Below are positions 2,439 through 59,717 of a stretch of DNA of 64,000 nucleotides, piece by piece. The stretch lies in assembly GCA_045541795.1 (NCBI GenBank), contig JAZQJV010000010.1, forward strand, positions 72,333 to 136,332, given 5' to 3'. Both the position numbers and the translations under genes were made by a program. The notes under the pieces were generated by a model, which ran no database searches, had not been told where the DNA came from, and saw only the letters and a program-made list of their open reading frames with translations. The stretch comes from Patescibacteria group bacterium. GTDB lineage: Bacteria > Patescibacteriota > Microgenomatia > UBA1400 > PJMF01. Positions within the stretch are counted from its first letter, which is position 1; every line of letters starts with the position of its first letter.

Positions 2439-4179
2439 GACTACTTTCTAGTGGCACCCAGTGCCCTACCGCGAGCACTGGTTTGCCACCTACATCCTCG
2501 ATCACTGCTGCTTCTGGCGTCGCTGTCAGCTGTGTCGATTCTGCCATCGTCAGCACAAAAAGTTGTTCCTTTTCTTCCCAACCCGGGCCAAACTTGATTT
2601 TATCTGGTGTATAAGTAATGTATTCAGCCTGATCATAGCCCTGTTCACCGGCTATCGCTTGCAAACTCGCCGGCGCGATCTGCCGATACCAAAAATAATA
2701 AACCGCCGGCCGCCCCAGCTCACGCGTCACGTACACCGGTAGCTGAGGATATTTTTCCTGCCACGCCGCCAATTCACGGTAAGCCGCCTCATATCCGTCT
2801 TGCCAGTCACCAGCAAAAGCGCGCGGATAATAGACGTGATAATAATAAAGCCAGGCTGCCAACATGCCAACGTAAATCAGCGTGACAACCATCACCAGCC
2901 ATGGCCGCCATCTTTTTCCCACCAAGTTCATTACTTCCACCCAGCCAGCAGCCACCACCATCAGCAGTAGCGGCAGCAATGTCAGCGTCCGCAGCAAATG
3001 CGGTGTCGCTCGAGTGAAGCTGGCCGGCAAGACCGCGATCACTAGCCAAAAAAGCAGCCACGCTAGCCGTTCTTGACGACGGCGCCAATTCTTACTTAAA
3101 TACACGACACCCAAAAACAGCGCGATCATTTCTACCGGATACAGCACACCAAAAAGCCCCACACTATGGCGGCGATTTACATCTCCATGGAAGAATAAAT
3201 AATCCCAAGTGAAATGATCGCCAAAATTTTGTAAAATCTGCCGCGCAAAAAACCAGTAGCGATGACACCACCACCGAGCCAATAAACCCTCGCCTCCCAG
3301 CTGCCGGCACTGATTACTCTGTTTGATAATCTCCACGTCACTAAAAATCGACGTTTCGCTAAAGCGATTTGTCAGTGAACGCTTACTATCTAATACAAAA
3401 GGCGTCAACGCCACCATCGCCAGTATCGACATTACACCTAGACTACGCCAGATCTTGCGCCATCGTTGTGGCGCCTCCCGCGCCAGCTTATGCCAACGCC
3501 ACCACAATAAATAAATGCCTGCCAGAGGGGCAATCACCCGCAAAGAGTGATAAGTATAAAAACTCAAAAGTAAACACACTTCACCACCTACAGCCGGCCA
3601 ATCAAACTTCGGCATAAATTTTTTTTCACTTTTTTCAGTTTTGCGGTCCGCTGAAGGATAAAGTAAATACACACCGCCCAAGAAAAAAGCCGTCGCCAAC
3701 ACTGTCTCAAAACCTACATGCCCCAAATGTATAAAACTCGGATTGATCGCCACCAAAAGCATCACTAAGTTTTCCCACCACCAATATTTATTTTTTAATT
3801 CTGGGAAAACTTTTCCCGCTAGTCTCCCAGCCAGCCACACGATCATGACACTTGCAAGCAAACTCGGCACTTTGACCGCCAAAAGCTGCGGCCCTATTAC
3901 CATCATGACTAAGGCCACCGCATAAAAATAACCACTAGGCTTGTAATCACCAAAACTCACCAGTGCGCTCGCCGGCAAAAAATTACCATGCATGTCGCGC
4001 GCGGTAGTCGCCAGTGACCAACCATCGTAAGCTAAAGCCATCTCATCCCAATAAACACTCGGCGGGACTTGGCCCAAACCCCACACGCGCAGCAAAAAAG
4101 CCACAAATAAAATCAAAATACTCAAATAAAAAGGATGCTGTCGTATTTTCCTCCACCAGTTAGCAGCTACCTTCATCAT
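2431..4179 (-). CDS. GT-C fold membrane glycosyltransferase, PMT/ArnT-like, with C-terminal soluble domain
   Basis: 582 aa. VYWDEMALAYDGWSL...FGDYKPSGYFYAV loop-1 DE motif, multi-TM N-terminal half, soluble C-terminal 150 aa. Paralog of 801-2438. Confidence 0.7.
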   Translation of the reverse strand: MMKVAANWWRKIRQHPFYLSILILFVAFLLRVWGLGQVPPSVYWDEMALAYDGWSLATTARDMHGNFLPASALVSFGDYKPSGYFYAVALVMMVIGPQLLAVKVPSLLASVMIVWLAGRLAGKVFPELKNKYWWWENLVMLLVAINPSFIHLGHVGFETVLATAFFLGGVYLLYPSADRKTEKSEKKFMPKFDWPAVGGEVCLLLSFYTYHSLRVIAPLAGIYLLWWRWHKLAREAPQRWRKIWRSLGVMSILAMVALTPFVLDSKRSLTNRFSETSIFSDVEIIKQSNQCRQLGGEGLLARWWCHRYWFFARQILQNFGDHFTWDYLFFHGDVNRRHSVGLFGVLYPVEMIALFLGVVYLSKNWRRRQERLAWLLFWLVIAVLPASFTRATPHLLRTLTLLPLLLMVVAAGWVEVMNLVGKRWRPWLVMVVTLIYVGMLAAWLYYYHVYYPRAFAGDWQDGYEAAYRELAAWQEKYPQLPVYVTRELGRPAVYYFWYRQIAPASLQAIAGEQGYDQAEYITYTPDKIKFGPGWEEKEQLFVLTMAESTQLTATPEAAVIEDVGGKPVLAVGHWVPLESSHE

Positions 4180-6887
4180 TCACTTTCTTCTAATTCTGTC
4201 TCCAACGTCGTGACAGGCGCCGTCTTCGTAATGCACCAAGCCAAATGATGCCACGGCCCAAAATAATAATTGTTGGTATGAGCACACTGACTAGCAATCA
4301 TCGCTTTCATATGTTCATCAATCTCCAGTGGCGAGTAAATTACTGCCGTCTTACTTTTTTGTAAGTGACTACTTGTCAGTTTACCTGTAAACATATATTT
4401 TTCCGAAAGCTTACCAAAGCGATAGGCTTCCGGGCTCAAATGCTCAGCCAGCAAAGCATAAATGTAAGGTTGTTCCAGACTGCTTGCAAAAATAATTTGA
4501 TCAAATTCACTATTTTTTACCGATAAATCAGCAAAAACATCCAGCAAATTTACCGCAAACAAATACGCGGCGTCCTTTTGCAACTCGCCAATCCGGCCAG
4601 CGCGTACCTGTTCACCAGTCGTGACTGTCACCTGCGACACCGGCGCAAAAATCTGCTGATAATGAACCCATGCTACCATCCATTCCAGAGTAATAATCAC
4701 CATCGTCATCATCACACAGCTTGGATAATACATCGCGCGCGCACGCCACCAGCGCCGCCACGCCACCAAAGCCAATACATCCAAAATGACCACACCTACC
4801 ACCACCGGCAGCGCTTGGTTACTATGCGGGATCTGATCAGTGATCGCTGCTGGGACCAGCCCACCAAAAAATAAAGCCAGGCCCAGTAAGGCAACTTTAC
4901 CATATTGCCGGCGCCAATCGGCAAAAATCACCACTGTCGCCAAAAGAATCAGCAGTAGCGGCAATTCTGCCCACCAGAGCACGCCAAAAGTTGCATCGCC
5001 ATGTCGCACGTTTGCCGCTTGCCGGCCGTAAACTTGCGCGTCAATCGTCGCTCCGCCCCAGAGGAAATCCGGACTCAAGTACTGTCCATAGTGCTGACTA
5101 AATCGTGACCATTTCTCACCCACGCTCAAGCTCTCATCGCTCAAAAAAGAAGAACTGCCGCGCGAAAGACCCAAGCCTTTACCAGTGAGCTGTCCGTCAC
5201 CGCAAACCCCACCCTGCCAGTGCGGCTGGCCGTCTACACTTTGTGACCACGCCAGCAAGGTAAATGGCCGCTCTGGCGCCACCTCACAAAAACTATCCTG
5301 GAGTAGGGGAGTAAGCAAAACCACACCGGCCGCCACTGGTGCCAGCAAAACCCGCCGGCACCGCCACAGTCGACGGCCAAAAAGCACCGCCACCGCCAGC
5401 AAAATCAAAAACACCGTAATTTTGGCCGAGTGATAGCTATAAAGCGCCGCCACCAAAGCCAGCATACTCCCCACAAGCGGCCCGCACCACCATTTATCCG
5501 CCCAGTAATTACCATTGTCATCAGTCTCACTGGCCCCAAACTTTGCCAACCCATAAATGGCCGCCAACTGGAAAACAAGTGCCAGCCCACTTTCAAATCC
5601 CAGATGTGAAAAATGGAAATGCCACCAAGAAAGCGTCAGTAACGCGCCTGCCAAAGCCGCATACGTCAGGTGATGCTTATTTTTTTCGCGCAAAAGCAAA
5701 TCCGTCAATTTCATCACCAACCACACGCTCATCACACCGGCCAGCGCAAAAGGCAAACGCACAGCCCAAATCTGCCGACCAAGCATCAGCTGGAAAGCAC
5801 CCACCAAATACACCGCCAACGGCGCTTTATAATCACCAAAAGACCGAAACGTCACCGGTAAAAAATTCAGCCATTCATCACGTCTGGTCTCCCACACGCT
5901 GATACCATTATAAGCCAGCGCCGCCTCATCTACTGTCAGTCCGCGCGGCATCTCTAACAGACCCAAACGAGTGACCAGTGCTGCTATCAAGACGACAGCC
6001 CATAAGCGTAGTGCCGGGAATTGCTTGAGCTGCCAATACCAGTAAAAAAACAAAAATTGCCATTTCTGCCGTCCACGGGCGTGTTTCCAAGCGAACTTCG
6101 TGCCGCCCCGCCAGCTCATCGCCGCAATTTTCTCCTCACCAAAAACATCTTTGTTTGTGGTCTCATGTACGTGCTCCACCACGGCTTTGTGGCAGTAAAG
6201 CACCTGCCAGCCGCGCGCTCGCGCTGAGTATGAAATATCTATATCTTCCCAATAAGCCGGGTAAAACTTAGTGTCAAACCCGCCCAAAAGCCGCCACTTG
6301 GTGATGTCAAAAAGACTGCTGCCACCGCACGCCCACGCCGTCTCGCCCGAATGATCCAGATTATCATCGCGCCGGTGCCAAAATCTACCCTTACTCCACC
6401 AAAGCTGATTACGCCCGCTTACCTGGCTGCCATGATTGACGTCAATTTCGCACGCGCTCACCGCAAAAACACTGTCGCCATTTTGCATCATCGCCCACAA
6501 ATTGTCTCGCACTCCCGCTCTGGGGCGCACGTCATTATTGAGCAACAAAAAATAGTCATTGTCTATCAGCGCTACTGTATCATTGACATTACGCGCAAAC
6601 CGCCCACACCGGTAGCGCTGAAAAAAAGAAATGGTAATCGGCTTGCCGTGCTCACTAATCCGCGCCCGGTACAACTGCCCCGCCGCACTCACATCTGGGA
6701 TCAGCTGTAAATCATACTTTTGGCGGAAATAGCGTAAATTTTCCAAATTGCCCGCCGCATCCTCACTGATGAGTAGTTCATCTCCGGCTTGCATCTGCGC
6801 CAGCACACTCGGCAAATTTTTCTCCAGCAAATGTTTTCCATTATAGGTAGGGATTAAAAAAGTAATTGCCGTGTGTTTTTTTGCCAT
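4176..6887 (-). CDS. Bifunctional fusion: N-terminal GT2 domain fused to C-terminal PMT/ArnT-like GT-C membrane domain
   Basis: N-terminus MAKKHTAITFLIPTYNGK...LLLNNDVRP...YWEDID gives a GT-A/GT2 fold. From about residue 320, LTVDEAALAYNGISVWETRRDEWLNFLPVTFRSFGDYKAPLAVYLV plus about 10 TM helices give a GT-C fold. I prefer the start at the internal Met at 6887, which leaves 1 nt before the upstream GT4 stop codon at 6889-6891. The longest ORF start at 6938 would overlap the GT4 gene by 50 nt. Confidence 0.65.
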   Translation of the reverse strand: MAKKHTAITFLIPTYNGKHLLEKNLPSVLAQMQAGDELLISEDAAGNLENLRYFRQKYDLQLIPDVSAAGQLYRARISEHGKPITISFFQRYRCGRFARNVNDTVALIDNDYFLLLNNDVRPRAGVRDNLWAMMQNGDSVFAVSACEIDVNHGSQVSGRNQLWWSKGRFWHRRDDNLDHSGETAWACGGSSLFDITKWRLLGGFDTKFYPAYWEDIDISYSARARGWQVLYCHKAVVEHVHETTNKDVFGEEKIAAMSWRGGTKFAWKHARGRQKWQFLFFYWYWQLKQFPALRLWAVVLIAALVTRLGLLEMPRGLTVDEAALAYNGISVWETRRDEWLNFLPVTFRSFGDYKAPLAVYLVGAFQLMLGRQIWAVRLPFALAGVMSVWLVMKLTDLLLREKNKHHLTYAALAGALLTLSWWHFHFSHLGFESGLALVFQLAAIYGLAKFGASETDDNGNYWADKWWCGPLVGSMLALVAALYSYHSAKITVFLILLAVAVLFGRRLWRCRRVLLAPVAAGVVLLTPLLQDSFCEVAPERPFTLLAWSQSVDGQPHWQGGVCGDGQLTGKGLGLSRGSSSFLSDESLSVGEKWSRFSQHYGQYLSPDFLWGGATIDAQVYGRQAANVRHGDATFGVLWWAELPLLLILLATVVIFADWRRQYGKVALLGLALFFGGLVPAAITDQIPHSNQALPVVVGVVILDVLALVAWRRWWRARAMYYPSCVMMTMVIITLEWMVAWVHYQQIFAPVSQVTVTTGEQVRAGRIGELQKDAAYLFAVNLLDVFADLSVKNSEFDQIIFASSLEQPYIYALLAEHLSPEAYRFGKLSEKYMFTGKLTSSHLQKSKTAVIYSPLEIDEHMKAMIASQCAHTNNYYFGPWHHLAWCITKTAPVTTLETELEESE

Positions 6888-6888
6888 G

Positions 6889-7983
6889 CTACATTTCCAA
6901 CATTTGCCAACATCTTTTTTCAAAGTTGGCCAAATCAAATTTCTCGGCCCGCTCGCGCACCTGCAGACTCACCTCGCGGCGCATCTTCTCACTTTTGATA
7001 AATTTGCGCGTGATTTTGAGGCACTCAGCTTCTGTGAGCCAACCAAGATACCGCAGTTTATTGCCCAAAATTTCTTTTTGTCCACCCTTGGCGATCACCA
7101 CTGGCACGCAACCTGCTGCCATCGCTTCTACGGTAGAAATACCGAAGTGTTCCATTTTTTCTGGGTGGACGTTTTCGTCATCCGTCGCGCCAGTAGCGTG
7201 CCAATAAATCGCGGCGCGCGCGTAATAATCCAAAAGTTTTGCCCGGTCCACATCAGTAATTATTTCCACCGGCAAATCCCTAGCTATCGCTTGCACTTTT
7301 TGCAGATAATCCATACTCTCCACCGAGCCAATCAGTACCAATTTCCAGCCAGCCAGCAGCTGCGGATTTCTATCCCGCAAACGGCGGAAAGCTTCCACCA
7401 GCAAATGTTGATTTTTTGTATGCAAACTATCAAAAAAACGGCCTACATTCAAAATAATTTTTTCTTTCTCTACCGTCTTTTCTTGCAAAGCCTTCACGTC
7501 TACTCCTGGCTGGCATACCAAATCCACCTTGATCTGCCAAAATTTTTCCACTACTTTTTTGGTAAAAAGTGAATTCGTATTGATTACCTGGAAACGTTTA
7601 AATTTGGCTTTTTCCCGGCCTGAGCGCGGAGCTAGGGTCAGCGGCACCTGGATATGCATGATGTTACGCCTGGCCAAAGAAAAAAAAGCACTACCATCCG
7701 TCACGAAGTAAAGACAATCATACCCTCTCGTCCACCACAATTTCCTGAGCCGTCGGCCTTTCATGCCCAAAGGTGTCGCCACAAAATGTAATTTATCCAG
7801 TTTCCGGCCCAAAAAGTGTTCGTACTTTTTTTTGATCGCGTCCAAATCCGTCTTGATGCGCCCGGCGCAAATAGCGATCGTCACGTCATGTTTGCTGGCA
7901 TAAACAAGCGCTGTATCCAGCAAATACTTCTCTCCACCTCCAAAATGATCTGGTAAGTATGGTGAATAAAAAGCTATTTTCAT
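6889..7983 (-). CDS. Glycosyltransferase family 4 (GT-B fold, retaining)
   Basis: 364 aa. C-terminal EX7E-type motif HFGISTVEAMAAGCVPVV. N-terminal MKIAFYSPYLPDHFGGGEKY is typical of GT4. Confidence 0.75.
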   Translation of the reverse strand: MKIAFYSPYLPDHFGGGEKYLLDTALVYASKHDVTIAICAGRIKTDLDAIKKKYEHFLGRKLDKLHFVATPLGMKGRRLRKLWWTRGYDCLYFVTDGSAFFSLARRNIMHIQVPLTLAPRSGREKAKFKRFQVINTNSLFTKKVVEKFWQIKVDLVCQPGVDVKALQEKTVEKEKIILNVGRFFDSLHTKNQHLLVEAFRRLRDRNPQLLAGWKLVLIGSVESMDYLQKVQAIARDLPVEIITDVDRAKLLDYYARAAIYWHATGATDDENVHPEKMEHFGISTVEAMAAGCVPVVIAKGGQKEILGNKLRYLGWLTEAECLKITRKFIKSEKMRREVSLQVRERAEKFDLANFEKRCWQMLEM

Positions 7984-9789: not shown

Positions 9790-10887
9790 ATGTCAGAGCC
9801 GATACTAAAAAAAATAAACTTTCAAACTATCACTATTTTTAGTATTGTCCTTGTAGTTATTGTTGCAGCCGCCGGAGTGTGGCAAAATATCAACTTGTCT
9901 CATCAACAATCACCAGCAAATGTCAGTCATGAAAATGTCGATGCCGACGATTTCGTTTATCAAGATCCCACTCTCACCACAAGCAATGAGCTATTAGAAG
10001 AAATCACACCGCAAAACTTCAACGAACAGCTCGCCTACAGCTGGGCCTGGCATCAATATTATGCCAGCACCAGTCTTCCAGAAGCTAAAAGTAGGACCAT
10101 AACTGAGCTAGCAAATGCCAAAAAAATGTTTGACGCTGGTGATCAAAATGCCACCTTAAACTGTTTTTTTATGTGGGATATCATCGGTGATGAAACATTA
10201 GATGCTGACAGCCGCAATCTTGCCCGTGAACTTTGTCATAACGGCAAGCAAAACGTTGTTTACGACTCTAGTTTCAGCCAATACTGGGAGCGCCTCCAAA
10301 AAGGACAGGAACAAATCGAAAGCGAACAAGGAGCATTCTGGTACTATTACCCAGATCGTGTCGTCGAGGATTATACCTTAGAATTAGGTGAAAAATATCA
10401 AAATTACATCTCCGGCAATGCAAACATCACACCAGAACAAGATAACACCGCTGCCGCTAGACAGTTGAAAGACTATGCTCTCGTGATGATTGATAAGTCA
10501 GATCTCGCTTACGGCGTCGCTAATCCAAACTACACCAAAGACCTAAGACTCAAAAATGAAAGTCAGCTGCAATTTATGGCCCTGGGCGAAAAACTCTTTT
10601 CTTGGTATATTGCTTACGGTGACCAGAATTTTGATACTGAAAGCAAGTGTTTACTGCGTGAAGCGTTGACACTTTATTATGATCGATTCACTTCCGCCTT
10701 GGAAGAAAGTTTCCTCACTCGCCTACCAATATGTAATGAACCATCAACTTACTTAGTACAACTTGTAAATCGCGGGCATTATGATAAAATAGAAATTAAT
10801 CCTGTCTTGGTATTGGAAGATGTCCGAGCAGGTGAGGCAACAGATAATTACGAAAAAATAATTATAGCGGGACTACTAAGTCAATGA
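9790..10887 (+). CDS. Cassette 1 protein B: N-terminally anchored hypothetical protein, paralog of 20226-21713
   Basis: 365 aa. TM segment TITIFSIVLVVIVAAAGVW. The block AYSWAWHQYY aligns with AYTWAHHQYY in the 509-aa protein. Confidence 0.6.
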   Translation: MSEPILKKINFQTITIFSIVLVVIVAAAGVWQNINLSHQQSPANVSHENVDADDFVYQDPTLTTSNELLEEITPQNFNEQLAYSWAWHQYYASTSLPEAKSRTITELANAKKMFDAGDQNATLNCFFMWDIIGDETLDADSRNLARELCHNGKQNVVYDSSFSQYWERLQKGQEQIESEQGAFWYYYPDRVVEDYTLELGEKYQNYISGNANITPEQDNTAAARQLKDYALVMIDKSDLAYGVANPNYTKDLRLKNESQLQFMALGEKLFSWYIAYGDQNFDTESKCLLREALTLYYDRFTSALEESFLTRLPICNEPSTYLVQLVNRGHYDKIEINPVLVLEDVRAGEATDNYEKIIIAGLLSQ

Positions 10888-13800
10888 GGAAGGCAAATAA
10901 AACTTACCAGCTCTTCATCAAAGTCGTATTGCCGATTATCGCTTTTGTGTTTATCAGCTTTTTTGCCGCCAAAACCATACTTCAAACTGTCGATGCTAAA
11001 GGCGGGAGCGGACCAGGCAGTGCTCTCGATCCTCAAAATCCAAGCGGACCGATTACTTGTACCACAGGAGATGGACATGGAAATCCTAGCGAATGGGATG
11101 CTGTCACTCCAGCTTGGCGGCCTAGACTAAAAGAAGTCATCCAAAAATGTCGAAATTCTGATGGATACTATAACTATGATCAGCAATGGCTATTTGTGCG
11201 CAATGCAATCGTCTATCCGTATTCAGAATACAAGTCTACTAGCTATTGGGACGTAATCCCTGATAAGATTGCTCCTAGTGCCAGCGTCTACGGCAAAGAA
11301 ACTGGCTACAGAATGCATTGGTTTTACACCACCAATAATTCAGGAAGCTGTAGCGATCATAAGTATTGGAATCTCTGGATCCGTGATTTTGACTGTGATG
11401 GTGTCACTCACCAATGTAGTGAGCTAAATAACGGCAAAAACGTCTTTAAATCTGGACCAGATATCTTCAACGAAGTTTGTGAGCGAGCTTGTAATTATTA
11501 TGAACAGCTCACCAATATGGCATGTAAAAACGTCGTCAGTCAAAACTGGTCGCCAATGGGCACACTTCCCGAAGACCTCGCAAAAAGTGCTCTCACATTT
11601 GACACCACCAATCTAGAAGGAATAATGGATGATGCTGCTTCATATGCAACACTCATCAACAAAGAATTATCAGCATACACTGAATACATTATGAACTATC
11701 TCACTCCAGATAGCAAGTTTATGGTAATCCCAGATAGCGCCAACAGTCTCGAAACTGCACGTTCACAACTTGCTAACCTTGATGCAGTGATCAATACTAT
11801 CCGTAACACACATACAAATTACTCTACTCAGGCTCAGCAAAAAATCAATTCGGCCAATAGTGTGATTAGCTCGCTCACTAGTCAACTCTCCAGTGTTGAT
11901 TATAACGTCAACACTCAGTGTGGGTTTTATGCATCCAACAGGTGCTATACTTCAGGCAATCTGGACAGTAGTTGTAGTGATGCTAGGACTTATCGCTCAC
12001 AACTTGCCAACAGGCGTAGCCAGTATTACAGCTTATTAGATAGTCTCTCCACCAGTACCAGCACTATTGAATATTATGAAAGCGAAGTCAAAAAGCTTCA
12101 ATCTTACCTCAATACATCGATGCAAAACTGTGCCAGCAAAACTAAAAGCGGCTATGGATGTGACTATGCGACAGCCTGTCATCAATACATAAGTATCGAA
12201 CAAACTATAGATGGAGCAAAAGATAGTCTACAAGAAGCCAAAGAACAGTTGTGGGCTGTCAAAACCGATAAAGTTGATTTTGACGACAATACTGAAGCAA
12301 AACTGCGTGAATACGCTAAACAATTTACTCGAGCTTATAACAGCTATAAAGTCGCCGCCGGTAATACCAAAATAGACTGGACGTTTGGTTACTGTTCCGC
12401 CGACGGCTCCGGTGATAGCCCAATGTGTAATAATATCAAGATCATGCAAGGCTGTCTCGAGTTTGTCGGCAAAGCAGAAGCCCAGCTCGCTTCAGAAGGA
12501 AAAGTCAATGCTGTCACCAAAGGGTCACTAAGCGTACATATTGAATCACACAGTTGCGATACCCGCTCAGACTTCATCGACGTCAACTGTTCCATTAAGG
12601 GCTGTTATCAGACTAGAGAGTGGTGCCGTAACATCAATCAATTCTACGTTGAACCAGATGAAAAATGTCCATTGGGAGGTAATGGCCGGATCGCTTACGT
12701 GAATTCTATCCAAAATCCTGGTAGTACTCTGCGATGCCGTAAATGCAATACCTCATTTACTACCTGTGAAGAAGCAGCTAAGTACGCATGGCTTTATGAT
12801 TCCAGCGAACCAAAGGGAAGCGGCAAAAACAATGAAGTTAAAAACTGGGTAGAAGGTTACTACGACAGCAGTTTTGATGCTAAGCGTTATTGGGCCATCC
12901 GTACCAATTGTGAAGCCGACGAAGATCATCAGATCAAAAAATGGATCCAAGATGAAGACGGTCATGCACCCATCCAATGTACGGTCGCTTGTGTACAAAA
13001 CTGTGACGAGATCCGCGATCCCGATACTCAGCAATACATGGAAGAACCAGACCGTGAACCTTTCGTTAATAGTTCTAGCAAATATTATCATACCAGCAGC
13101 TGTTATCGCAAAGGCTGGAATCCAGTTATCAAAGTCGTCGAAGACATTCACGGAATTCAGACCACATGTATTGGCGGCTGTCTCGAGCCTTGCGGAGATG
13201 TACGTCAGTTACAATGGGGTGCAGTACGCAACTATACAGTGAACGGTTATACCTATAAAGACTATGCTCAAAGCACTCGAGATAAATATTTCTTACCAGA
13301 AGACACCAATTGTACCGCTGCTCAATTAGCAACCAAGACTAGCGTCAGCATTCGCGATCACTACAATCGGAGTTACAGCAAGAAATGCTACTCTGACAAA
13401 TGTCGTAAAGACTGTAAATCCATTTGTGAAGCCAGAGGGTGGAAGACTTCAGACTATGACTGCGGATCCGGTATACCCAACTACGCCAGCGTCGACGGCT
13501 GTACTTGTGTAGCAAACTGTTCTGGGGATGCTTGTCGCAATCAAGGTTACTGGCCAGCCAGTCACGTCTGTGCACCAAATGAAGAATCACTCGGCACAGA
13601 GACCATCATTGATAAAAACGGTCACTCAATTGTTTGTCACAAAGGATGCAAAGCCAAAACTCCAGGTGACGAACTTAAGTGTGCTCCAGGCGTACCAGTA
13701 TATAATGGCAGCAGTGTCACGGTTAATGGTGTGACACAAACCGATTTTGTCGGTGATGTTTATATCAACAGTGATGAAACCTTCTATAATGAGCGCAATG

Positions 13801-15644
13801 CCTGGCTTATCACCAGAGACCAAAGAAGATATCCTGCCTATACACTGTCAGGCGAATCACGGGTGCGCAACGTGATTATTTCACCGCTCGGCTATGAGAA
13901 AAAAGAAAGAACCAGCCCATATCAAATCTGTCGTTGGGGTGAGTGTCTCGTCAATGACGCTGCTGAGCGCGCAGATGAACTTAATGCCCGTAATCAATGC
14001 GATAAAAAATACAAGTATTACAGCGCCATCGACGATGGCTGCCGTCGACACTACCAATATATAAGCTACTGCTTTGACGATCCGCCGCCAAATAACTGTC
14101 ATTCGACCTCTTGTGGCCAACAATGCCGCTGCGGTAGGCAGTATTATAGTGGTAGCGATGATGACTCATGTCACTATGCTGGCTGTGTCACCTGTGTGCC
14201 TACCTGCTATACAGAATCAGATCTCGGCTTTGGCATCCGTGAGGTTCCTTGTGTCGGACCAGGTGGAGAAAGAACCCATTCAGATTTCTGTTCCACTAAC
14301 AAATACACCAGCTATGAAGCCTGCAAAGTGCCTACATGTAATAACGTTGATGATGTCCTCGATGTCATGGATCGTACCAATTTCAAAAAATGTGGTGTCG
14401 AGAACCCCAAAGATAGAATTACCCAACTCGATCAAGCGCATGAATATCTAGGTGAGCAAGCGTATGGTGTTGGTGGTATCTACCAGTGCACCGATAGAAT
14501 TCCCAACGCTCCTGACGCTATCGCATATCCAGATGAATGTACAGGTTTAGAAAACCACTGTTTCCACGTCTTACCTTGTGGAGAAGTGCAAGTTGCGGAG
14601 TCCAAAGGACAAATCGGTTCCAAAGTCAGTGCCACTCACAAGGATGAATTCGGACAAGTAACGGGTACTGGCGGACTGCTTTGCGGTGGCGGCGCATGCA
14701 AAGAAAGCGATCATTACATCTTTATCCCTGGTACAGAATCCACCAATTATCAAGTTGGTGTCGCCGGCCAACGTTGTGGACGTTATTGGGAAGTCTCAGA
14801 ACCGCAATGGTCGATGGCTGGGGGCACATCCAATATTTACACCGCAGAAGGCTCATCTAAGCGTAGTAAAGAAAAGGGAGTAACTACTGACCGTTGTGGC
14901 AACGCTAATGGTGTCGAACTCACTAGAGGTAGCTTCAAACTTGAAGATAGCGTACCGCTAACATACGAATTCTTTGAACAAGCCATGGATATTTCTAAGC
15001 TTCCCAGATGTAGTGATGTTACCATAGATACAGACGAGTTTTACATCTGTAAAGAAAACGGTGACTTTAGTACTTCCGATCTTAATCCCGACCTACTTCG
15101 TGCCGACCGCAATCTCGTAGTTTTCATGGACTCGGAAAGTGGTACTTTCACCATTGATACTCAAATAGAAACTGCCCGTGATTACTTCAAAGCCTTTATC
15201 AGTCGCGGTAAAATGGTGATCGACTGGGGCGTAGGCACCTGGCCAGAAGCAGCCTACGAACGCAACCTTGGTTGTGCTGATACCGACACCGCTGACTTAC
15301 AAGGCTTCTTTGCCGCTGATGAAATTACTTTCCCCAGCAAATTGGTAGCAGATTCTCAAGCAAATGCCTTTAACGAAAACCTGCGCTGTGATCGGCAACT
15401 TGTCATCGCTGGCAACCTTATCCAGTGGGGAGATAAGGCGCTCAATCTCACCCGTACATTCCGTGGTTGCGTCGGTGGCAATGAAGACCTTGCTGCTTGG
15501 AAAGCAGCCGAACAAAATCCAGCTGTTTACCGTGATTTCAATAAGATCATGTCACCGTATGTGTTCTACCAACGCCCCGACTTCCAAAATTCCGCTCCCG
15601 AATGGATGAAAACGAGCAATACCGAAAGAATTGAGGTAAATTAA
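10884..15644 (+). CDS. Cassette 1 protein C: giant secreted cysteine-rich protein (1586 aa), paralog of 21710-27388
   Basis: N-terminal signal anchor. More than 100 Cys in CxxC and C-x-C patterns. The C-terminal roughly 400 aa are conserved with the 1892-aa paralog: TADLQGFFAA...VIAGN(L/I)(I/V)QWG...RTF(R/K)GCVGGN...YQR(P/S)DF(Q/N)(N/S)S(A/V)P(E/N)W(M/L)KT. The start overlaps the upstream stop (ATGA), implying translational coupling. Confidence 0.7.
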   Translation: MRKANKTYQLFIKVVLPIIAFVFISFFAAKTILQTVDAKGGSGPGSALDPQNPSGPITCTTGDGHGNPSEWDAVTPAWRPRLKEVIQKCRNSDGYYNYDQQWLFVRNAIVYPYSEYKSTSYWDVIPDKIAPSASVYGKETGYRMHWFYTTNNSGSCSDHKYWNLWIRDFDCDGVTHQCSELNNGKNVFKSGPDIFNEVCERACNYYEQLTNMACKNVVSQNWSPMGTLPEDLAKSALTFDTTNLEGIMDDAASYATLINKELSAYTEYIMNYLTPDSKFMVIPDSANSLETARSQLANLDAVINTIRNTHTNYSTQAQQKINSANSVISSLTSQLSSVDYNVNTQCGFYASNRCYTSGNLDSSCSDARTYRSQLANRRSQYYSLLDSLSTSTSTIEYYESEVKKLQSYLNTSMQNCASKTKSGYGCDYATACHQYISIEQTIDGAKDSLQEAKEQLWAVKTDKVDFDDNTEAKLREYAKQFTRAYNSYKVAAGNTKIDWTFGYCSADGSGDSPMCNNIKIMQGCLEFVGKAEAQLASEGKVNAVTKGSLSVHIESHSCDTRSDFIDVNCSIKGCYQTREWCRNINQFYVEPDEKCPLGGNGRIAYVNSIQNPGSTLRCRKCNTSFTTCEEAAKYAWLYDSSEPKGSGKNNEVKNWVEGYYDSSFDAKRYWAIRTNCEADEDHQIKKWIQDEDGHAPIQCTVACVQNCDEIRDPDTQQYMEEPDREPFVNSSSKYYHTSSCYRKGWNPVIKVVEDIHGIQTTCIGGCLEPCGDVRQLQWGAVRNYTVNGYTYKDYAQSTRDKYFLPEDTNCTAAQLATKTSVSIRDHYNRSYSKKCYSDKCRKDCKSICEARGWKTSDYDCGSGIPNYASVDGCTCVANCSGDACRNQGYWPASHVCAPNEESLGTETIIDKNGHSIVCHKGCKAKTPGDELKCAPGVPVYNGSSVTVNGVTQTDFVGDVYINSDETFYNERNAWLITRDQRRYPAYTLSGESRVRNVIISPLGYEKKERTSPYQICRWGECLVNDAAERADELNARNQCDKKYKYYSAIDDGCRRHYQYISYCFDDPPPNNCHSTSCGQQCRCGRQYYSGSDDDSCHYAGCVTCVPTCYTESDLGFGIREVPCVGPGGERTHSDFCSTNKYTSYEACKVPTCNNVDDVLDVMDRTNFKKCGVENPKDRITQLDQAHEYLGEQAYGVGGIYQCTDRIPNAPDAIAYPDECTGLENHCFHVLPCGEVQVAESKGQIGSKVSATHKDEFGQVTGTGGLLCGGGACKESDHYIFIPGTESTNYQVGVAGQRCGRYWEVSEPQWSMAGGTSNIYTAEGSSKRSKEKGVTTDRCGNANGVELTRGSFKLEDSVPLTYEFFEQAMDISKLPRCSDVTIDTDEFYICKENGDFSTSDLNPDLLRADRNLVVFMDSESGTFTIDTQIETARDYFKAFISRGKMVIDWGVGTWPEAAYERNLGCADTDTADLQGFFAADEITFPSKLVADSQANAFNENLRCDRQLVIAGNLIQWGDKALNLTRTFRGCVGGNEDLAAWKAAEQNPAVYRDFNKIMSPYVFYQRPDFQNSAPEWMKTSNTERIEVN

Positions 15645-18874: not shown

Positions 18875-18993
18875 ATATCTTTCTATTGTTCGTTCCTTTA
18901 TCTTTCTGCCGTGACATCAACTTTTTCTGTATTAACTATGTCACAACTGTTTACATTATATCACATATAGGCTATTTTGTCAAGACCCAATTT

Positions 18994-19002
18994 CTTATTC
19001 CC
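18994..19002 (+). promoter_or_regulatory. Extended -10 element TGGTATAAT, about 16 nt upstream of the LCP start codon
   Basis: TGGTATAAT at 18994-19002; ATG at 19019. Confidence 0.5.
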
Positions 19003-19018
19003 GTGGTATAATACGCCT

Positions 19019-20191
19019 ATGCTAAAAAAGTGGTACTTCTGGCTGCTAATGAGCGTCGTTTTTTTCTTGACGGCCTTCCTTACGGTGGTTATGGGTCTAT
19101 TTTTTGCCCATCCGGTAGTCATCATCGGCTCAGGCGAAAAACTCATCCAGCTAGAACTCGCACCGGTAGCCGAAGACCCGCTCAGACCTGTCCACATCTT
19201 GCTGCTCGGGCATGGTGGCGGCAGTCATTCTGGCGGCAGCCTGGCAGATACTATCATTTTAGCGCAGATCATCCCCAAAAAACGCCAAATCAACCTCTTT
19301 AATATCCCCCGTGATTTATGGGTGGAATTACCATTTCCCGCCCGTGATGGGGGAGAGGAACTCATGCACGCCAAGGTCAATACCACTCTCGCCATCGGCA
19401 GCAGTGAGCGCCAATACACTTGGCGTAGTGAGCAATTTAAAGGCGAGCACGGCGGCGGCGCCCTTGCCAAATACGTTATCGGCCAGATTACGGACTTGCC
19501 TATAGATTATTATGTGGCCGTGGATTTTAGTGGTTTTGTGAAAGTTATAGAGACTATTGCCGGTAAACAGGGTCTCAAAATTGACGTGCCGTATTCCTTT
19601 GTAGACGAATTTTACCCGATAGAAGGACTAGAAGACGATCCATGCGGGTTTAGTGAGGAAGACATCGCCACAATGTCGGCTACGCTCACCGGCTATGAGC
19701 TGGAAAAACAGTTCACCTGTCGCTACGAAAGGCTAGAATTTACCCGGGGTACCCAGCTAATCGCCCCCGACCAACTGCTTAAATTTGTCCGTTCTCGTCA
19801 TTCTGGCACTCATGGCGGGGATTTTGGCCGCTCGCAGCGCCAACAAGTAGTAATTGAAGCCCTCAAACAAAAAATTTTCTCGGCCAGCATGATCGCCAAA
19901 GTCCCTGAGCTCATCCGTCAAGTGCTGCGCCTGGTGCGCACCGACCTTGACTATGAAATGCTCAGCTCTGTGCTTTTGGCTTACGACGGGATTGAAGATT
20001 TTCAGATCACCAGTTTTGTCTTGACCAATCAGAATTTATTGGCAGACGGACGCAGTAGTGATGGCCAGTATGTCTTGCGGCCACGGCTGGGCTTGGATGA
20101 TTACCGCCAGATCCAAGATCTGGTCAGCTGGACACTCGAGGCCACTGGCGAAGCCACGCTAGACGATTTCATGTCACTAATCGGTGAATAA
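19019..20191 (+). CDS. LytR-CpsA-Psr (LCP) family cell-envelope glycopolymer transferase
   Basis: N-terminal TM segment. LGHGGGSH...LADTIILAQI and FVRSRHSGTHGGDFGRSQRQQVVIEAL match LCP-family motifs. I prefer the start at the Met after the promoter, not the ORF-track start at 18977. Confidence 0.7.
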   Translation: MLKKWYFWLLMSVVFFLTAFLTVVMGLFFAHPVVIIGSGEKLIQLELAPVAEDPLRPVHILLLGHGGGSHSGGSLADTIILAQIIPKKRQINLFNIPRDLWVELPFPARDGGEELMHAKVNTTLAIGSSERQYTWRSEQFKGEHGGGALAKYVIGQITDLPIDYYVAVDFSGFVKVIETIAGKQGLKIDVPYSFVDEFYPIEGLEDDPCGFSEEDIATMSATLTGYELEKQFTCRYERLEFTRGTQLIAPDQLLKFVRSRHSGTHGGDFGRSQRQQVVIEALKQKIFSASMIAKVPELIRQVLRLVRTDLDYEMLSSVLLAYDGIEDFQITSFVLTNQNLLADGRSSDGQYVLRPRLGLDDYRQIQDLVSWTLEATGEATLDDFMSLIGE

Positions 20192-20227: not shown

Positions 20228-21713
20228 GGAGCGAGATTATAACGCAGAAACTATGACAGCAAAACAAAAGGGCACGAGTTTGTCCACACCAGATAAAAGT
20301 TGGCAGATTATAATTTGCACTGTCATTGTTACTGTCGCCATAAGTGTCATTTTTTCATTGATTTACCGGTATTTTTCCCGCAAGGCACAGCCAGGGGATT
20401 ACGTAGTAAGTAGTGATCTGCATCCGCGCGAGGTGGAAGCGCCATACCTGCAGGCCGCCAGCAAACTGCTTGAGAGCGCAAGCCGCGATCAAGCCTTTGC
20501 CAATCTGGAGACCACGCTCGCTTATACCTGGGCGCATCACCAATACTACCTTGCCACCGGTCAAAAAGAAGCCATAAACGACGTCGCCGCCGGGATTGAT
20601 CACGCGAGCACGATTATGGAACAAAAAAGCGATTTTGGCCCCAGCAGTGACATGTTGCCCGAACAATTAAAAATCGACCCGGCAAAAATTGGTCTTTTTT
20701 GCGCGATGTATCAAGATATTTACCAAGATCACACCCTACACAGTTCCCTGCGTGAAAGCACTCTAGCACTGTGTGATCAGGCCAGTGAAGATTTCTACCT
20801 CACACCCCAGATGCAAGAGTTTCACGATCGCCTCGAGCAAGGCCAAGCCAAAATGAATAGTGAAGCCAGCGCTTTGTATACCTACAATCCGGAGTACATC
20901 ATCAAGGAAGTCACCGAGCGCCTCCAAAGTGAACTGCAAAAATTCTCCCGCGGCGGCGATTTCTCATGGTATGATGACGCCTCGATAGACATGCCCACTG
21001 CCCGCGACAATCTCGCCCGGCATTTGGCGGCCACCAGTAATAAATATTACCGCCGCCAAGTTTTTCACTCAGTCTCGCCAACAGACGACGACGCCAGTAT
21101 CAAGCGGTTGCAAGCCCAAAACACGCGCGATCAGTTTGACTGGCTCTATTTGCTCGGTCAGACTTTATCCTGGTATGCTCACTATGGCGTCAGCCAAGAA
21201 GAAGAAAAATGCCTACTCCAGCAAAACCTCATCACTTATCTGCATTCCAGCTCTGCCGGCGACGTGGGGGCAGGAGAAATTTTGGCTTATGCCTCACCTC
21301 TATCAGGCACGATGTCTCCTGAGTGCCAAGTGCTAGCATTTTATAATTATCACCCCGATACGGATACCTTTAACCGGCAGCTCAATCTCGCCAGCAGTGA
21401 ATTTGTAGACGAATACACGCCCACGGCGGAAAAACTGTATTTAGCGGGCCTACTGACACAAGAGGAACAAGAGCAAACCGATCACTTAGAGCGGCTCGGC
21501 GGTGTAGACATTTCTCTGCCGGAAGGCTTTGAAAATATCTATGACGAACTGACCCAAGAAGACTTAGACGCCGTACCAGATATTTTTGACACCGCCACTT
21601 GGGAAGAAGTATCCTCAGCACCAGCAAACACAACTGTAAGCGATGAAGAACTCTACCGGCAAGCGGAAGAATATTACCAGATGTTACAGGAACATGAGGA
21701 GGCTACACCATGA
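20226..21713 (+). CDS. Cassette 2 protein B: anchored hypothetical protein, paralog of 9790-10887
   Basis: TM segment IIICTVIVTVAISVIFSLIY, then AYTWAHHQYY and other blocks shared with the 365-aa protein. The start is ambiguous: GTG at 20184, ATG at 20226 or ATG at 20253. Confidence 0.55.
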   Translation: MERDYNAETMTAKQKGTSLSTPDKSWQIIICTVIVTVAISVIFSLIYRYFSRKAQPGDYVVSSDLHPREVEAPYLQAASKLLESASRDQAFANLETTLAYTWAHHQYYLATGQKEAINDVAAGIDHASTIMEQKSDFGPSSDMLPEQLKIDPAKIGLFCAMYQDIYQDHTLHSSLRESTLALCDQASEDFYLTPQMQEFHDRLEQGQAKMNSEASALYTYNPEYIIKEVTERLQSELQKFSRGGDFSWYDDASIDMPTARDNLARHLAATSNKYYRRQVFHSVSPTDDDASIKRLQAQNTRDQFDWLYLLGQTLSWYAHYGVSQEEEKCLLQQNLITYLHSSSAGDVGAGEILAYASPLSGTMSPECQVLAFYNYHPDTDTFNRQLNLASSEFVDEYTPTAEKLYLAGLLTQEEQEQTDHLERLGGVDISLPEGFENIYDELTQEDLDAVPDIFDTATWEEVSSAPANTTVSDEELYRQAEEYYQMLQEHEEATP

Positions 21714-24700
21714 AACTTTTTGCCCGTTCCCTCACCAAACTCACCCACTGCCTCACACTAATAGCCATGTGCGCCTTTATCTTTACTAGCCGTTCTGATG
21801 CCGTCTGGTGCGCCGCTCTCAATAAAGACATCACCTGCCCCAATGGCGATCATCCGCCAGGCTCCACGCCTCATCTAGGCAATCTTTTCACGATCAATCG
21901 TACCACTCTGCGCGCCGCCATCCGTTGTTGTGGCGGCAGTGTCAACTTTGACCGTCTCTGGGTACGCGAGGAAAGCCAAAGCGGCTGGCCGGGTTTTCAT
22001 GTCCACTGGGATTATGATACCAATAGTTCTGCCAGCTGTTACACCAAAAATTTTAACCTCCACATCCTCAATGACGACTGCCCAGGCTTAGGTAAAGTCA
22101 GCTCATGCCCCAAATCCGGCTCAAAATCTTATTTAAGCGGCGCGGATTATTTTGAATATTTATGCCGTGATGCTTGTCAATTGTATGAAGGTATGACTGG
22201 TCGCTCTTGTAGTGAAATTGTCGATCAGGTCAGCTCCCCCTTAGGTACAGCTGATACAGACCTGGGACGTAATGACGTCGCTTTTGCTCTCGGTGATCCC
22301 GATCGGCGCAAAATCTTGCAAGGTGCCGTGGACGGACTCAATGAATTACTACCATATGCCAACGTAGAGCATTGTGGCCTTACTAAGGTGAGCTCGCTCA
22401 ATCTCGGCCGGGTGGACTCTCAAATTGACTATTTATTTGACCGCGGCACTGGCGATAATTTTTGTCTGGAAGGTGAGCTTTGCTGGGCCAGACGAGAAAC
22501 TGCCTACTCGCAAGCCAAACGTGACCAAATGCGTATCCAGATGGATTACACCTGTGAGGCTTACAAATATGCCTATTACACGCCACAAGCTTCTGATAGA
22601 TTTTTGGAAGAATGGAAAAGTATCTATAGTAAAACTAAAAGCAAAACTTTTTATTATGACCGCAAATACGCCTCTGGCGACAGTGTTTACTCTTCTCGCA
22701 CTAGTGGTAGCGCCTCGGTGAGCTTTAGTGAAAGCGGACTTTGCCGCATGGCTGGCGACAAATGGATTTGCCAAAACGAGCCCAGTGGTGAGTATCCCGG
22801 CAGTCTACAAGGAGCCAAAAATAATATGAACAGCGCTGCTGACTACTACCGTAATTCTGCCAATCAAGATGCCAACTGGTACAGCAGTGAGGTCGGCAAA
22901 ATGGAAGGTTATATCCGAGGCAATACTTCTTGCCGCAATAATGCCAATAATAAAATTAACTCCAACTGTCCTTACGTCGACTCCGCCTACAGTTCTTACC
23001 GATCTGCCTACAACAGTTATTCTTCCTGTTATTCTTCTTGCCGCAACCAAAAAAACGCCGACGGCAAATATAAAAGTAGCAGTGAATGTGACAGCCAATG
23101 CAATTACGGTCACGTCCAGTCGCTCTACAATACTTACAGCAACTATTCCAGTAATTGTTCCTCTGGTCGCTCCGAGTATAATACTTGTGTCAGTAATTAT
23201 AATTATGCCGTCAATAATATCGGCGATTACTCGTACCGAGCGGCCTTTTACCGTGCCCGTGCTGAGCTATATGATGAGCACAAACAAGACTACAACAACA
23301 ATAATGATTACTTCCAGTACCGTATCTACTACCGGGTGGGGCAGATCACCGCTTCCTACGGCAACATCAATTGCGCCAACAACAAGTATTACGAAGGGCA
23401 AAAATTTGGCGATGATCACTGGAAACCTTACTATACACAGTGGTACTCTCACTCATACAATCGCGATACTGCTGTCAGCAACTGCCGCAGCATTACGCGG
23501 TCTAAAGGCTACGATCATTGTATTGAGGCGATTGACGAGCTCCCACGTCAAGTAAGACTTTACAAATATTCCCGTGAATGGTCTGAGCAGACTGGCAACG
23601 ACAATTACTACTGCACCAATACCAGTACCACTGTCTGCTCTCCTTCCACCAAAAACGGTGGCTGTCACACCAATCCGGAACGCTCCTACATCAATATCGG
23701 CGGCAACTATTACTACACCAACGGCCTCACCAAGCGTACCGACGATAAAACTCCGCACACCTGGAGCTATAACGGCACCACCATGAACGTGCGCTGCTAT
23801 AAAAAAAGCCGACTGGAAACAAATGATGACATCGAATGGATGAAATCACACATTTCGCTACCAGGTTTCATCGAGTCGTATATCAAGCCGCAAGTTGCCC
23901 TGATCATAAAACGCAAAGACGCCTACTACAAAACTATTCCGGCTAAAAGTGGCGGCGGCGATCCCAGCAATGCTTGGTTTGAGTCTTGGCGCAAAGCCGG
24001 CGGCACCAATCTATGTTCAAACAAAACCAGCATCAATACTCGCGGTTGTGTCGCTGTCAACCTGCTGCAAAGTTGTCTTAATAAAGCCAACTCCATGATG
24101 CAATCCAATACTTCAGACGTCACTCATAAATCCGAAGGCATCCTCACCACTTACCAAGATAACCATGCCTGTACCGGCGATAATGATGCCGTCTCCTCCT
24201 CACGCTGTTATAAATTTGGTTGCTACGTGCAGCGGGAAACCTGCCGCAACGTCGACCAGTTCTTCGTTGACTACGATGAAGTCTGTAGTGTGGGTACTTA
24301 CGCCGGCAGTAAGAGCCCGGATATTTATTACAATCAAGGAACCAATAAAAACCTTACCTGCCGCAATTGCGCTGCCGCAAATTCTTGTAGTCAGGCAGCG
24401 GCACAAGGTTACCGCTATGATCCGCTGGCTTCTAATCCCAATAATACTAATGTCATCATGGGCTTTTTGATCGATGATAAAAACGCCTCCCGCTATAAGA
24501 CGATCCTCACCAGCTGTCCGGCTGGGCAGCACTGCGAGACAAAAACTTTGAGATATAAAGGCAAAACCATCGGCAACTGTCTCGTCGTCACCGACTCTGG
24601 TGTCACCTGTGCCAGTAACGGACTCAAAGACTTCTCTTCCAACGCTTGCGCTTACAGGAGCGACGGCCACAATACTCCGGTGCCACGCTATATTAATGAA

Positions 24701-30577: not shown

Positions 30578-31495
30578 TCAAATCGCCACCTGCTTGCCCC
30601 AGCGTCTCGTCAAAAATCTAGTAGCCGCTAGTTTTTCTACCGGGGACCCATGACGCCACAGCCTCCAGGCTAGACGCAAAGTCCGCAGCTTTTCGCGCCA
30701 CTGGCCATAAGTAAAAAAGAAAAGAAGACGATTGCGCGTCTGGTAAAAAGTCTGTAAGTCACTACCGGCGCCGGCCGTAGAACTGCCGTTTTTGTGCCAA
30801 ATCACCGCCTCGGGCACCCAGCCGATCTGGAAACCATGAGCCACCAGCCGTCTGCTCAAATCACAATCCTCAAAGTAAAGAAAATAGCGTTCATCAAAAA
30901 CGCCCACACTTGCTAGGACTTCACGCCTGATCAAAAAACAGCAACCAGTGGCAAAATCCACCGTCTTTTCGAGAGAAAACTGTCCTCGATCTACCTCATC
31001 CACGCCGATATGCAGCGTCAACAAATTATTCCAGTCGATACTGCCACCCGCATACCAGATCACTTTGCCTTGATCTGCTTGAGCGTAACTGTCTTGATGG
31101 AACTCACAGCCGGGAGCAAAATACATCTTAGGCACAGCCACGCCCCAATCATGATGTCTGGCAAGCGCGCGATAAAGTCTCCCCAAAAATGGCGGATCTA
31201 TCAATGTATCTGAGTTAAGCAGCAAAAAGTAATCCGGATCAAAATCACGGCTAGCCGCCTCAAAGCCTAGATTATTGCCGCCCGTAAAACCCAAATTAGA
31301 GTCAGAACGCACAATCTGCACGTCATGGATAAATTTGTCATCTTTTTTGAGAGAAAACGGCTCTTTGGAGGCATTGTCCACCACGAACACTTTAACGCTC
31401 AAACCAGCATCATCAAGGCTATCCAGCGATGCCAAAGTCGCCCGCGTATCTTCATCGGTATTGTAATGGACTATAATAATCGCCACCTTATCCAT
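30578..31495 (-). CDS. Glycosyltransferase family 2 (WbbL/rhamnosyltransferase-like)
   Basis: VAIIIVHYNTDEDT, VVDNAS and LLLNSDTLI motifs. Confidence 0.7.
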   Translation of the reverse strand: MDKVAIIIVHYNTDEDTRATLASLDSLDDAGLSVKVFVVDNASKEPFSLKKDDKFIHDVQIVRSDSNLGFTGGNNLGFEAASRDFDPDYFLLLNSDTLIDPPFLGRLYRALARHHDWGVAVPKMYFAPGCEFHQDSYAQADQGKVIWYAGGSIDWNNLLTLHIGVDEVDRGQFSLEKTVDFATGCCFLIRREVLASVGVFDERYFLYFEDCDLSRRLVAHGFQIGWVPEAVIWHKNGSSTAGAGSDLQTFYQTRNRLLFFFTYGQWREKLRTLRLAWRLWRHGSPVEKLAATRFLTRRWGKQVAI

Positions 31496-55777: not shown

Positions 55778-55798
55778 TACCCACATTAACAATTTAAG

Positions 55799-55871
55799 GG
55801 CCGTTGGCACAGTTGGTAGCGCGCTTCTATGGCATAGAAGAGGTCAGGGGTTCGACTCCCCTACGGTCCAC
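55799..55871 (+). tRNA. tRNA-Ala (anticodon GGC); CCA not encoded
   Basis: Manually folded cloverleaf. 7-bp acceptor stem with the G3:U70 Ala identity pair. Anticodon loop aTGGCAt. T-arm AGGGG-TTCGACT-CCCCT. Discriminator A73. Confidence 0.85.
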
Positions 55872-55982
55872 AACTTATTCCCGCAAAAATTGCAAGAATA
55901 ATTTCCCCATAATTAATTACCGCATAATTACCGCAAAGTGAATTTTCGCTCCTGCCCCGCCGCTATAAGAGTAGAGGAGAGC

Positions 55983-58861: not shown

Positions 58862-58870
58862 TGTTATAAT
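58862..58870 (+). promoter_or_regulatory. Extended -10 TGTTATAAT 7 nt upstream of the ATG at 58878 (leaderless-type)
   Basis: gtgTTATAATagccgatATG. Confidence 0.45.
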
Positions 58871-58877
58871 AGCCGAT

Positions 58878-59648: not shown

Positions 59649-59662
59649 TCGATTATTAACGC

Positions 59663-59692: not shown

Positions 59693-59717
59693 TTATGCAA
59701 TAATTTATTTCTCTCCC

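Follow-up and report, generated by a model that had tools for sequence, protein, structure and literature searches.

A GT2–GT-C fusion protein of a probable Patescibacteria cell-envelope glycan operon as a candidate bifunctional glycosyltransferase

In the three-component glycosylation systems GtrA/GtrB/GtrC, ArnC/ArnT, CsbB/YfhO and GacI/GacL (PMC11127046, PMC7389260), the gene of a family 2 glycosyltransferase (GT2) stands beside that of a glycosyltransferase of the GT-C fold, and the two serve the cytoplasmic and extracytoplasmic steps of one pathway. A precedent for a GT2 that continues into a polytopic membrane domain, within a pathway supplying GT-C enzymes, is Ppm1 (Rv2051c) of Mycobacterium tuberculosis, in which a polyprenol-phosphate-mannose synthase and a membrane domain are fused (PMC3485146). 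Here we describe a 903-residue protein that combines a GT2 domain and a GT-C domain in a single chain (Table 1), encoded in a 64,000-nucleotide stretch of the Patescibacteria contig JAZQJV010000010.1, the whole of which is referred to as the window. The analysis showed two intact catalytic modules on opposite faces of the membrane, coupled in one operon with a family 4 glycosyltransferase (GT4) and two GT-C paralogues. We regard the protein, with modest confidence, as a bifunctional glycosyltransferase of a Patescibacteria cell-envelope glycan operon, working on both membrane faces, in which the fusion docks the GT2 and does not channel a donor.

The locus superficially resembles the three-component systems in its pairing of genes and of membrane sides; unlike in those systems, the GT2 is not of the GtrB/ArnC type, and no GtrA-like flippase was found in Pfam scans of the window. 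Ppm1 differs in that its GT2 is a true DPM1-type donor synthase and its membrane domain is not a GT-C. The membrane domain of Ppm1 is Lnt/CN-hydrolase-like. In the full-text literature searched, outside which most subscription journals lie, no GT2–GT-C fusion, GT-A/GT-C fusion or Patescibacteria GT-C enzyme of any kind is described; matches on ‘fusion’ concerned instead GacJ–GacI/WpsB–WpsA and Alg13/Alg14.

The open reading frame (ORF) is uninterrupted and lies on the minus strand, a point absent from the preliminary description, which had proposed a single polypeptide with GT2 and ArnT/PMT-like GT-C domains. That proposal is borne out, and every motif quoted for it is present in the 903-residue protein (IPTYNG, residues 12–17; NND, 117–119; YWEDID, 212–217; LTVDEAALAY, 317–326). 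The longest ORF called mechanically starts at a TTG at position 6938; homologues begin at MAKKHT, placing the start at the ATG at 6887. The stop codon of the upstream GT4 gene (TAG, 6891–6889) ends 1 nt before this ATG, and the stop codon of the fusion gene overlaps the ATG of the next gene (4179–4177) in an ATGA arrangement.

Since in 39 of 79 related species one stop codon, placed precisely at this junction, separates the two parts into distinct genes, the fusion might be taken for an assembly or sequencing artefact in which a frameshift or a lost stop codon falsely joined two genes; we find this scarcely credible. The same 903-residue ORF, 98% identical and in the same gene order, occurs on an independent JGI metagenome contig (P0001), and a database search retrieved about 80 further full-length relatives of 790–906 residues, with 93–100% query coverage and 31–64% identity. 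Many of the full-length relatives carry GT2 families together with PMT_2 (PF13231), and two bear the JGI label ‘GT2 family glycosyltransferase/4-amino-4-deoxy-L-arabinose transferase-like glycosyltransferase’. The independent copy and more than 70 full-length homologues, 33–64% identical, exclude a frameshift, and fusion is likewise seen in 31 further species loci and in about 12 cluster representatives (50% clustering). A further 73 full-length homologues span the junction when aligned. In the alignment of 74 full-length sequences, used both for defining invariant residues and for an AlphaFold2 (AF2) model, Q274, P314, G316, D320 and E321 are invariant, on either side of and across the junction. 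The full-length model has a predicted local distance difference test score (pLDDT) of 91.9 and a predicted template modelling score (pTM) of 0.91, with pLDDT values of 87–97 over residues 251–330 and no drop in confidence through the junction. The fusion is genuine, neither an artefact nor a characterised system.

Relatives were sought in one genome per species, which gave 221 genomes with relatives, from which 79 loci were retained. The titles of the 221 name Patescibacteria, Paceibacterota, Woesebacteria, Microgenomates or ‘uncultured Pseudomonadales’ of the same series of metagenome-assembled genomes (MAGs), and the operon is kept across Paceibacterota, Microgenomates and Woesebacteria MAGs. 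All 30 loci inspected (L001–L030) have the same order: a 274-residue GT2-like protein, a GT4, the GT2 and GT-C (joined or separate), one to several further GT-C proteins, and again a small GT2-like protein. Within this order the GT4, GT2 and GT-C make up a conserved triad. Of the 79 loci, 31 have the GT2 fused to the GT-C (6 of them cut by a contig end), 39 have it as a separate gene of 270–320 codons, and 5 have it joined to the GT4 upstream. Where GT2 and GT-C are not fused, the GT-C starts less than 300 nt downstream in 33 of 44, and the split boundary consists of TAA, TAG or TGA followed at once by ATG, exactly at the position of the junction in the fused proteins. Such contiguous GT2 stop and GT-C start codons (for example, TAA ATG) are seen in L010, L011, L016, L026, L027, L075 and others, around position 8850. 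To judge from these sequences, a single substitution would suffice for fusion or fission, which has evidently occurred repeatedly. Stop-codon recoding or frameshifting was considered for the split forms and rejected: the stops are mixed and followed by ATG, and same-frame cases make up about one-third, as by chance, so that these are ordinary gene boundaries. The five GT4–GT2 loci recall the multidomain cytoplasmic GT4–GT2 glycan glycosyltransferases, from which the protein in the window differs in having an outward-acting GT-C as partner, with the active sites on opposite membrane faces.

Among 1.84 billion cluster representatives, 138 proteins matched at E ≤ 1e-30, comprising about 12 full-length fused proteins, about 100 free-standing GT-C proteins, about 15 free-standing GT2 proteins and three GT4–GT2 fusions (P0146, P0168 and P0196). 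The architecture thus recurs in a single clade but is rare among proteins in general, and its annotation is only generic (‘glycosyltransferase’). Many contigs bearing the cluster are titled ‘uncultured Pseudomonadales bacterium’ (L001, L004, L005 and others, among them isolates called HK-STAS-PATE-nn), and further titles read Methylococcaceae (two) and Limisphaerales (one); these MAG taxonomic labels look unreliable.

The GT2 domain has the residues of a catalytic GT-A fold, which spans residues 8–245 in the full-length model. Its invariant positions are D36, D43, R96, N102, N117-x-D119, W185, GGS at 188–190, PAYWEDxD at 210–217, H239, H241 and T244; the E214-D215-x-D217 motif and the H239/H241 pair are invariant throughout the 74-sequence alignment. 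The DxD-type motif is here the invariant NxD variant N117-x-D119, like the ‘LLNSD’ of a WbbL/rhamnosyltransferase-like GT2 encoded elsewhere in the window (30578–31495), and a β-hairpin is inserted at about residues 61–91. Pfam recognises the domain as Glyco_tranf_2_3 (PF13641; 32.8 bits against a gathering score of 27, residues 98–247), and homologues of the fusion protein also match PF00535 and PF13632; the C-terminal 600 residues of the query have no Pfam match, so that the domain search recovered only the first of the two modules. With the query alone, NCBIfam returned only a sub-threshold match to MftF.

The GT2 had been described as ‘donor-synthase-type’, an assignment that the comparisons do not support. 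When 28 N-domains were scanned against NCBIfam, all 28 matched MftF (best E 1e-22), EpsD (5e-20) and PgaC (3.5e-14), and 16 matched the ArnC model (best E 1e-4), so that MftF and EpsD are favoured over ArnC by about 18 orders of magnitude; the best values for other polyprenyl-phosphate enzyme models were 7e-4 (PgfS) and 2e-3 (AglJ). The scores are far below every family’s curated cutoff, and the domain is accordingly an equivalog of no named enzyme. In hhalign comparisons the N-domain aligned with the WbbL-like GT2 of the window over residues 6–244 (210 columns, probability 98.2%, E 5e-14), taking in LLNxD, YxEDxDLSxR...G and the subsequent histidine. The alignment with ArnC covered residues 4–134 only, the nucleotide-binding half, which is shared with ArnC, DPMS and GtrB, and ended after the DxD position. 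Profile matches to the Protein Data Bank (PDB) covered the first 60 or so residues, or extended to about residue 135 for SpsA and TagF, a range over which the subfamilies are not separable. A separate model of residues 1–292 (pLDDT 93.7) was used for Foldseek searches; the top 50 matches were all GT-A enzymes (E 1e-12 to 5e-10), the nearest solved folds being ppGalNAc-T isoforms (ppGalNAc-T2), the WrtF fucosyltransferase and B4GALNT1, and no GtrB, DPMS or ArnC structure was among these 50. Whole-model Foldseek alignments to chitin and hyaluronan synthases were discarded as non-superposable (850 columns, root-mean-square deviation about 30). The catalytic domain thus aligns over its whole length, including the LLNxD, xEDxD and histidine motifs, with GT2s of the WbbL/GlfT1/MftF/EpsD types, from which it differs in the β-hairpin, a C-terminal pair of amphipathic helices and the covalent GT-C partner.

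The Escherichia coli ArnC sequence used as query was verified to match PDB 9HWJ chain A exactly. It retrieves GtrB (1.6e-50) and PfDPMS (3.9e-21), so that the polyprenyl-phosphate GT2s form a coherent family that is readily recognised. With tblastn, ArnC detected separate ArnC-type GT2 genes near the cluster in 16 of the 79 loci and none in the 64-kb window, and never matched the fused GT2 domain, either in the window or in the 79 loci. A 243-residue GT2 at L011:3459–4190 served as positive control and matched ArnC over residues 9–231, its entire catalytic domain (PDB phmmer 1.7e-15; BLASTP 1e-18). It adjoins a polytopic GT-C-like membrane protein (PF10131, ‘PTPS_related’) some 3.8 kb upstream of the triad, and the two together look like a true donor-synthase/GT-C pair. 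Within this pair (L011:1693–4190, minus strand), the ArnC/GtrB-type GT2 has no transmembrane (TM) helices; the 15 other loci with such genes include L010, L016, L024, L038 and L053. Given the NCBIfam, hhalign, fold-neighbour and ArnC tblastn results, the GT2 domain therefore falls outside the donor synthases (DPM1/GtrB/ArnC) and groups with GT2s that glycosylate hydroxyl acceptors. These comparisons showed it to be a metal-dependent GT-A/GT2 of the WbbL/MftF/EpsD/ppGalNAc-T-like kind.

The membrane part finds its best fold match in ArnT, the GT83 enzyme that transfers aminoarabinose to lipid A: the two highest-ranking PDB matches of the full-length model in Foldseek are ArnT structures 5F15 and 5EZM (E 2e-9 and 1.4e-8), with a TM-score of 0.51, normalised to ArnT. 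Both proteins share an N-in topology, carry acidic residues in their first outer loop and have on the outside a C-terminal soluble domain, which in the present model has an α/β fold spanning residues 765–890 and is placed like the periplasmic domain of ArnT. Unlike ArnT, the fusion protein carries an N-terminal GT2, has 11 predicted TM helices and shows no detectable sequence similarity; neither a single-sequence search nor two profile searches, one with the full-length protein and one with the GT-C alone (35 sequences, including the paralogues), matched any PDB sequence to the GT-C part, even at E 10. ArnT has been described with 13 TM helices. The query has no PMT_2 or PMT match at E < 0.01, PF13231 is found in P0002 (64% identity) and in many full-length and stand-alone homologues, and PF02366 is found in a few homologues. 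The first outer loop (residues 309–372) holds the invariant D320-E321, D337-E338-W339, D352 and K354, and the long outer loop 534–640 contains G573, R576 and R628-H629. D320-E321 is invariant in the 74 fused sequences and in a set of 35 that includes free-standing paralogues. The short loops contain 11 Lys and Arg residues on the cytoplasmic side and 1 outside, obeying the positive-inside rule; on this count, as well as from hydropathy and the AF2 model, the GT2 is placed in the cytoplasm and the D320-E321 loop outside, as the preliminary description had expected. From the fold, the GT-C domain is inferred to use a polyprenyl-phosphate-linked sugar donor.

The GT2 is joined to the first TM helix by two long, aromatic-rich amphipathic helices with the consensus ...QKLxxLLWxPYW..K. 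Stand-alone GT2 homologues end in an aromatic amphipathic helix at the fusion/fission junction, and no TM helix was found in stand-alone GT2 orthologues. In the model, the two helices and the GT-C domain could serve the GT2 as its membrane partner.

Table 1 Coordinates of the fusion gene, its domains and the other genes of the operon (positions in the window)
Feature	Residues	Position	Strand	Basis or remark
Whole gene, 903-residue GT2–GT-C fusion protein		4176..6887	minus	ATG 6887, stop 4178–4176
GT-A fold GT2 catalytic domain, cytoplasmic	1–245	6153..6887	minus	Pfam, alignment, model
Two long amphipathic, aromatic-rich helices joining GT2 to TM1	246–290	6018..6152	minus	AF2 model
GT-C membrane domain, 11 predicted TM helices	292–747	4647..6014	minus	AF2 model, hydropathy
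C-terminal α/β soluble domain, predicted extracytoplasmic	748–903	4179..4646	minus	Model, topology
First gene of the cluster, weak GT2-like protein	274 aa	8001..8825	minus	PF00535 weakly, E 0.005
GT4 glycosyltransferase (Glycos_transf_1), upstream operon partner		6889..7983	minus	Pfam
GT-C paralogue B, downstream	582 aa	2431..4179	minus	No Pfam match; loop-1 signature YWDEMALAYDG...SFGDYKP
GT-C paralogue A, downstream	545 aa	801..2438	minus	Pfam PMT_2, 26.8 bits vs cutoff 26.1

The operon runs on the minus strand from 8825 to 801, in the order GT2-like, GT4, GT2–GT-C, GT-C and GT-C. The three tandem GT-C paralogues, of which the other two are 23–24% identical to the C-domain of the fusion protein, have a common loop-1 signature, DE[AM]AL.Y...[RG][DM][DE/H]...SFGD.K.P, which in paralogue A reads LNRDEAALAYNAY...SFGDQKLP; related loci contain one to four such GT-C copies. 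The 274-residue GT2-like protein occurs in two to three copies per cluster in relatives and brackets every cluster inspected (L001–L030). It has no NCBIfam match and is unrelated to the fused GT2 domain (hhalign probability 6%). Both its gene and the cluster GT2s of about 305–310 residues were considered as donor synthases and rejected, being not ArnC-like. General Pfam scans of about 43 ORFs of the window revealed no GtrA, Wzx or ABC exporter family.

A LytR-CpsA-Psr (LCP) ligase is encoded on the plus strand at 18977–20191, 10 kb from the operon, and in the closest relatives (L001–L003 and L009) an LCP gene lies directly upstream of it (about 4700–6000). This proximity suggests that the operon product is attached to peptidoglycan. 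The operon and the LCP gene are flanked by two giant plus-strand ORFs, 10884–15644 and 21710–27388, encoding proteins of 1586 and 1892 residues with N-terminal signal-anchor-like segments, 15–17% Ser+Thr and no Pfam domain. In L002, too, the cluster has a homologue of the first beside it. The two proteins may be exposed at the surface or be targets of glycosylation.

The window is a chromosome segment of Patescibacteria type, with genes for PBP1a, aminoacyl-tRNA synthetases, GreA, PilM, RNase III, NusB, gyrase, a MurC-like ligase and the LCP ligase. At 55798–56918 a tRNA-Ala(GGC) is followed on the opposite strand by a tyrosine recombinase/phage integrase gene, and the G+C content falls from about 0.47 to 0.40–0.43 over 56–60 kb (56000–60000); this region may be an integrated element. 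A YebC/TACO1-family ORF on the minus strand (59718–60257, 179 residues) matches positions 1–54 of the 160-position profile of the second and third domains and may be truncated or frameshifted.

In the mechanism we prefer, the GT2 domain would glycosylate a hydroxyl acceptor, most probably a sugar belonging to a lipid-linked glycan intermediate, from a nucleotide sugar at the cytoplasmic membrane face, alongside the adjacent GT4. Following translocation, further sugars would be added on the outside by the GT-C domain and the two tandem paralogues; the polyprenyl-phosphate sugars serving as donors would be made by a separate ArnC/DPM1-type GT2. The fusion itself would have arisen by stop-codon loss between two translationally coupled neighbours, and would mainly dock a TM-less GT2 on the membrane beside its pathway partner, with no channelling of the donor. 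As the acceptor, a wall polymer is suggested by the LCP ligase, and surface proteins by the PMT-like features and the giant secreted ORFs.

The preliminary description had offered another model, in which the GT2 makes a polyprenyl-phosphate sugar inside and the fused GT-C uses it outside, as in a fused GtrB–GtrC or ArnC–ArnT pair, so that the fusion channels the lipid-linked sugar. The topology suits this model, the GT2 and GT-C orthologues are adjacent or fused in almost every locus, the amphipathic helices put the GT2 active site at the membrane, the nucleotide-binding half is common to the N-domain and to ArnC, DPMS and GtrB, and the 64-kb window holds no ArnC-type GT2. We nevertheless think it unlikely, although it is the strongest of the rivals: the acceptor half is unlike that of ArnC, GtrB and DPMS, beyond the reach of the alignment at residues 4–134, the NCBIfam preference for MftF and EpsD is very large (about 18 orders of magnitude), and the fold neighbours are GT-A enzymes acting on peptides or glycans. 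In addition, the same GT2 is joined to a cytoplasmic GT4 in five loci, and 16 related loci encode bona fide ArnC-type GT2s in genes of their own. The donor would still have to be flipped to the other membrane face, and the fusion alone therefore cannot channel it. The GT2 subfamily tests, the GT4–GT2 fusions and this need for a flip together speak against channelling. A ‘make, flip, transfer’ unit, in which the GT2 glycosylates a lipid carrier or lipid-linked intermediate at the inner face and the GT-C gives it a path through the membrane and then uses or elaborates the product outside, is a long shot; if true, it would explain both the obligatory pairing of GT2 and GT-C and the absence of a recognisable flippase from the operon.

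Two further alternatives concern the role of the GT-C. It might act in protein O-glycosylation, the PMT-like GT-C enzymes glycosylating Ser/Thr of secreted or surface proteins, such as the giant ones encoded nearby, while the lipid-linked glycan used is assembled or lengthened by the cytoplasmic GT2 and GT4. PMT_2 or PMT matches in paralogue A and many homologues, an invariant D-E pair in loop 1 like that of protein O-mannosyltransferases, and the two giant Ser/Thr-containing, signal-anchored proteins beside the operon (1586 and 1892 residues, the first with a homologue next to the cluster in L002) point this way. We give it rather little weight, as the fold is closest to ArnT, which modifies lipid A, rather than to a PMT, the MIR domain is absent, the nearby LCP ligase favours a wall-linked polymer, and the sequence does not allow the acceptor to be inferred. 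The GT-C part might otherwise be a catalytically dead anchor or scaffold, like Alg14 or GacJ, for a GT2 whose stand-alone forms have no TM helices, and the pTM of 0.91 implies a fixed docking of the GT2 on the membrane domain. This is very improbable, given that some 20 positions in the outer loops and TM core do not vary among the 74 sequences, including D320, E321, D337, E338, D352, K354, R377, E432, H486 and R576, and that most of the invariant GT-C residues are common to the free-standing paralogues, as expected of an active GT-C.

Patescibacteria (the candidate phyla radiation, CPR) are mostly uncultivated and, to our knowledge, almost nothing is known of their envelope glycans. Its three tandem ArnT-like GT-C enzymes and the nearby LCP ligase make the operon a good candidate to produce a major glycoconjugate of the wall or surface. 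The protein has an active site on either side of the membrane and occurs naturally in fused and split forms; it is a worthwhile target for the biochemistry of CPR envelopes and offers a convenient object for studying how the cytoplasmic and extracytoplasmic steps in assembling lipid-linked glycans are organised.

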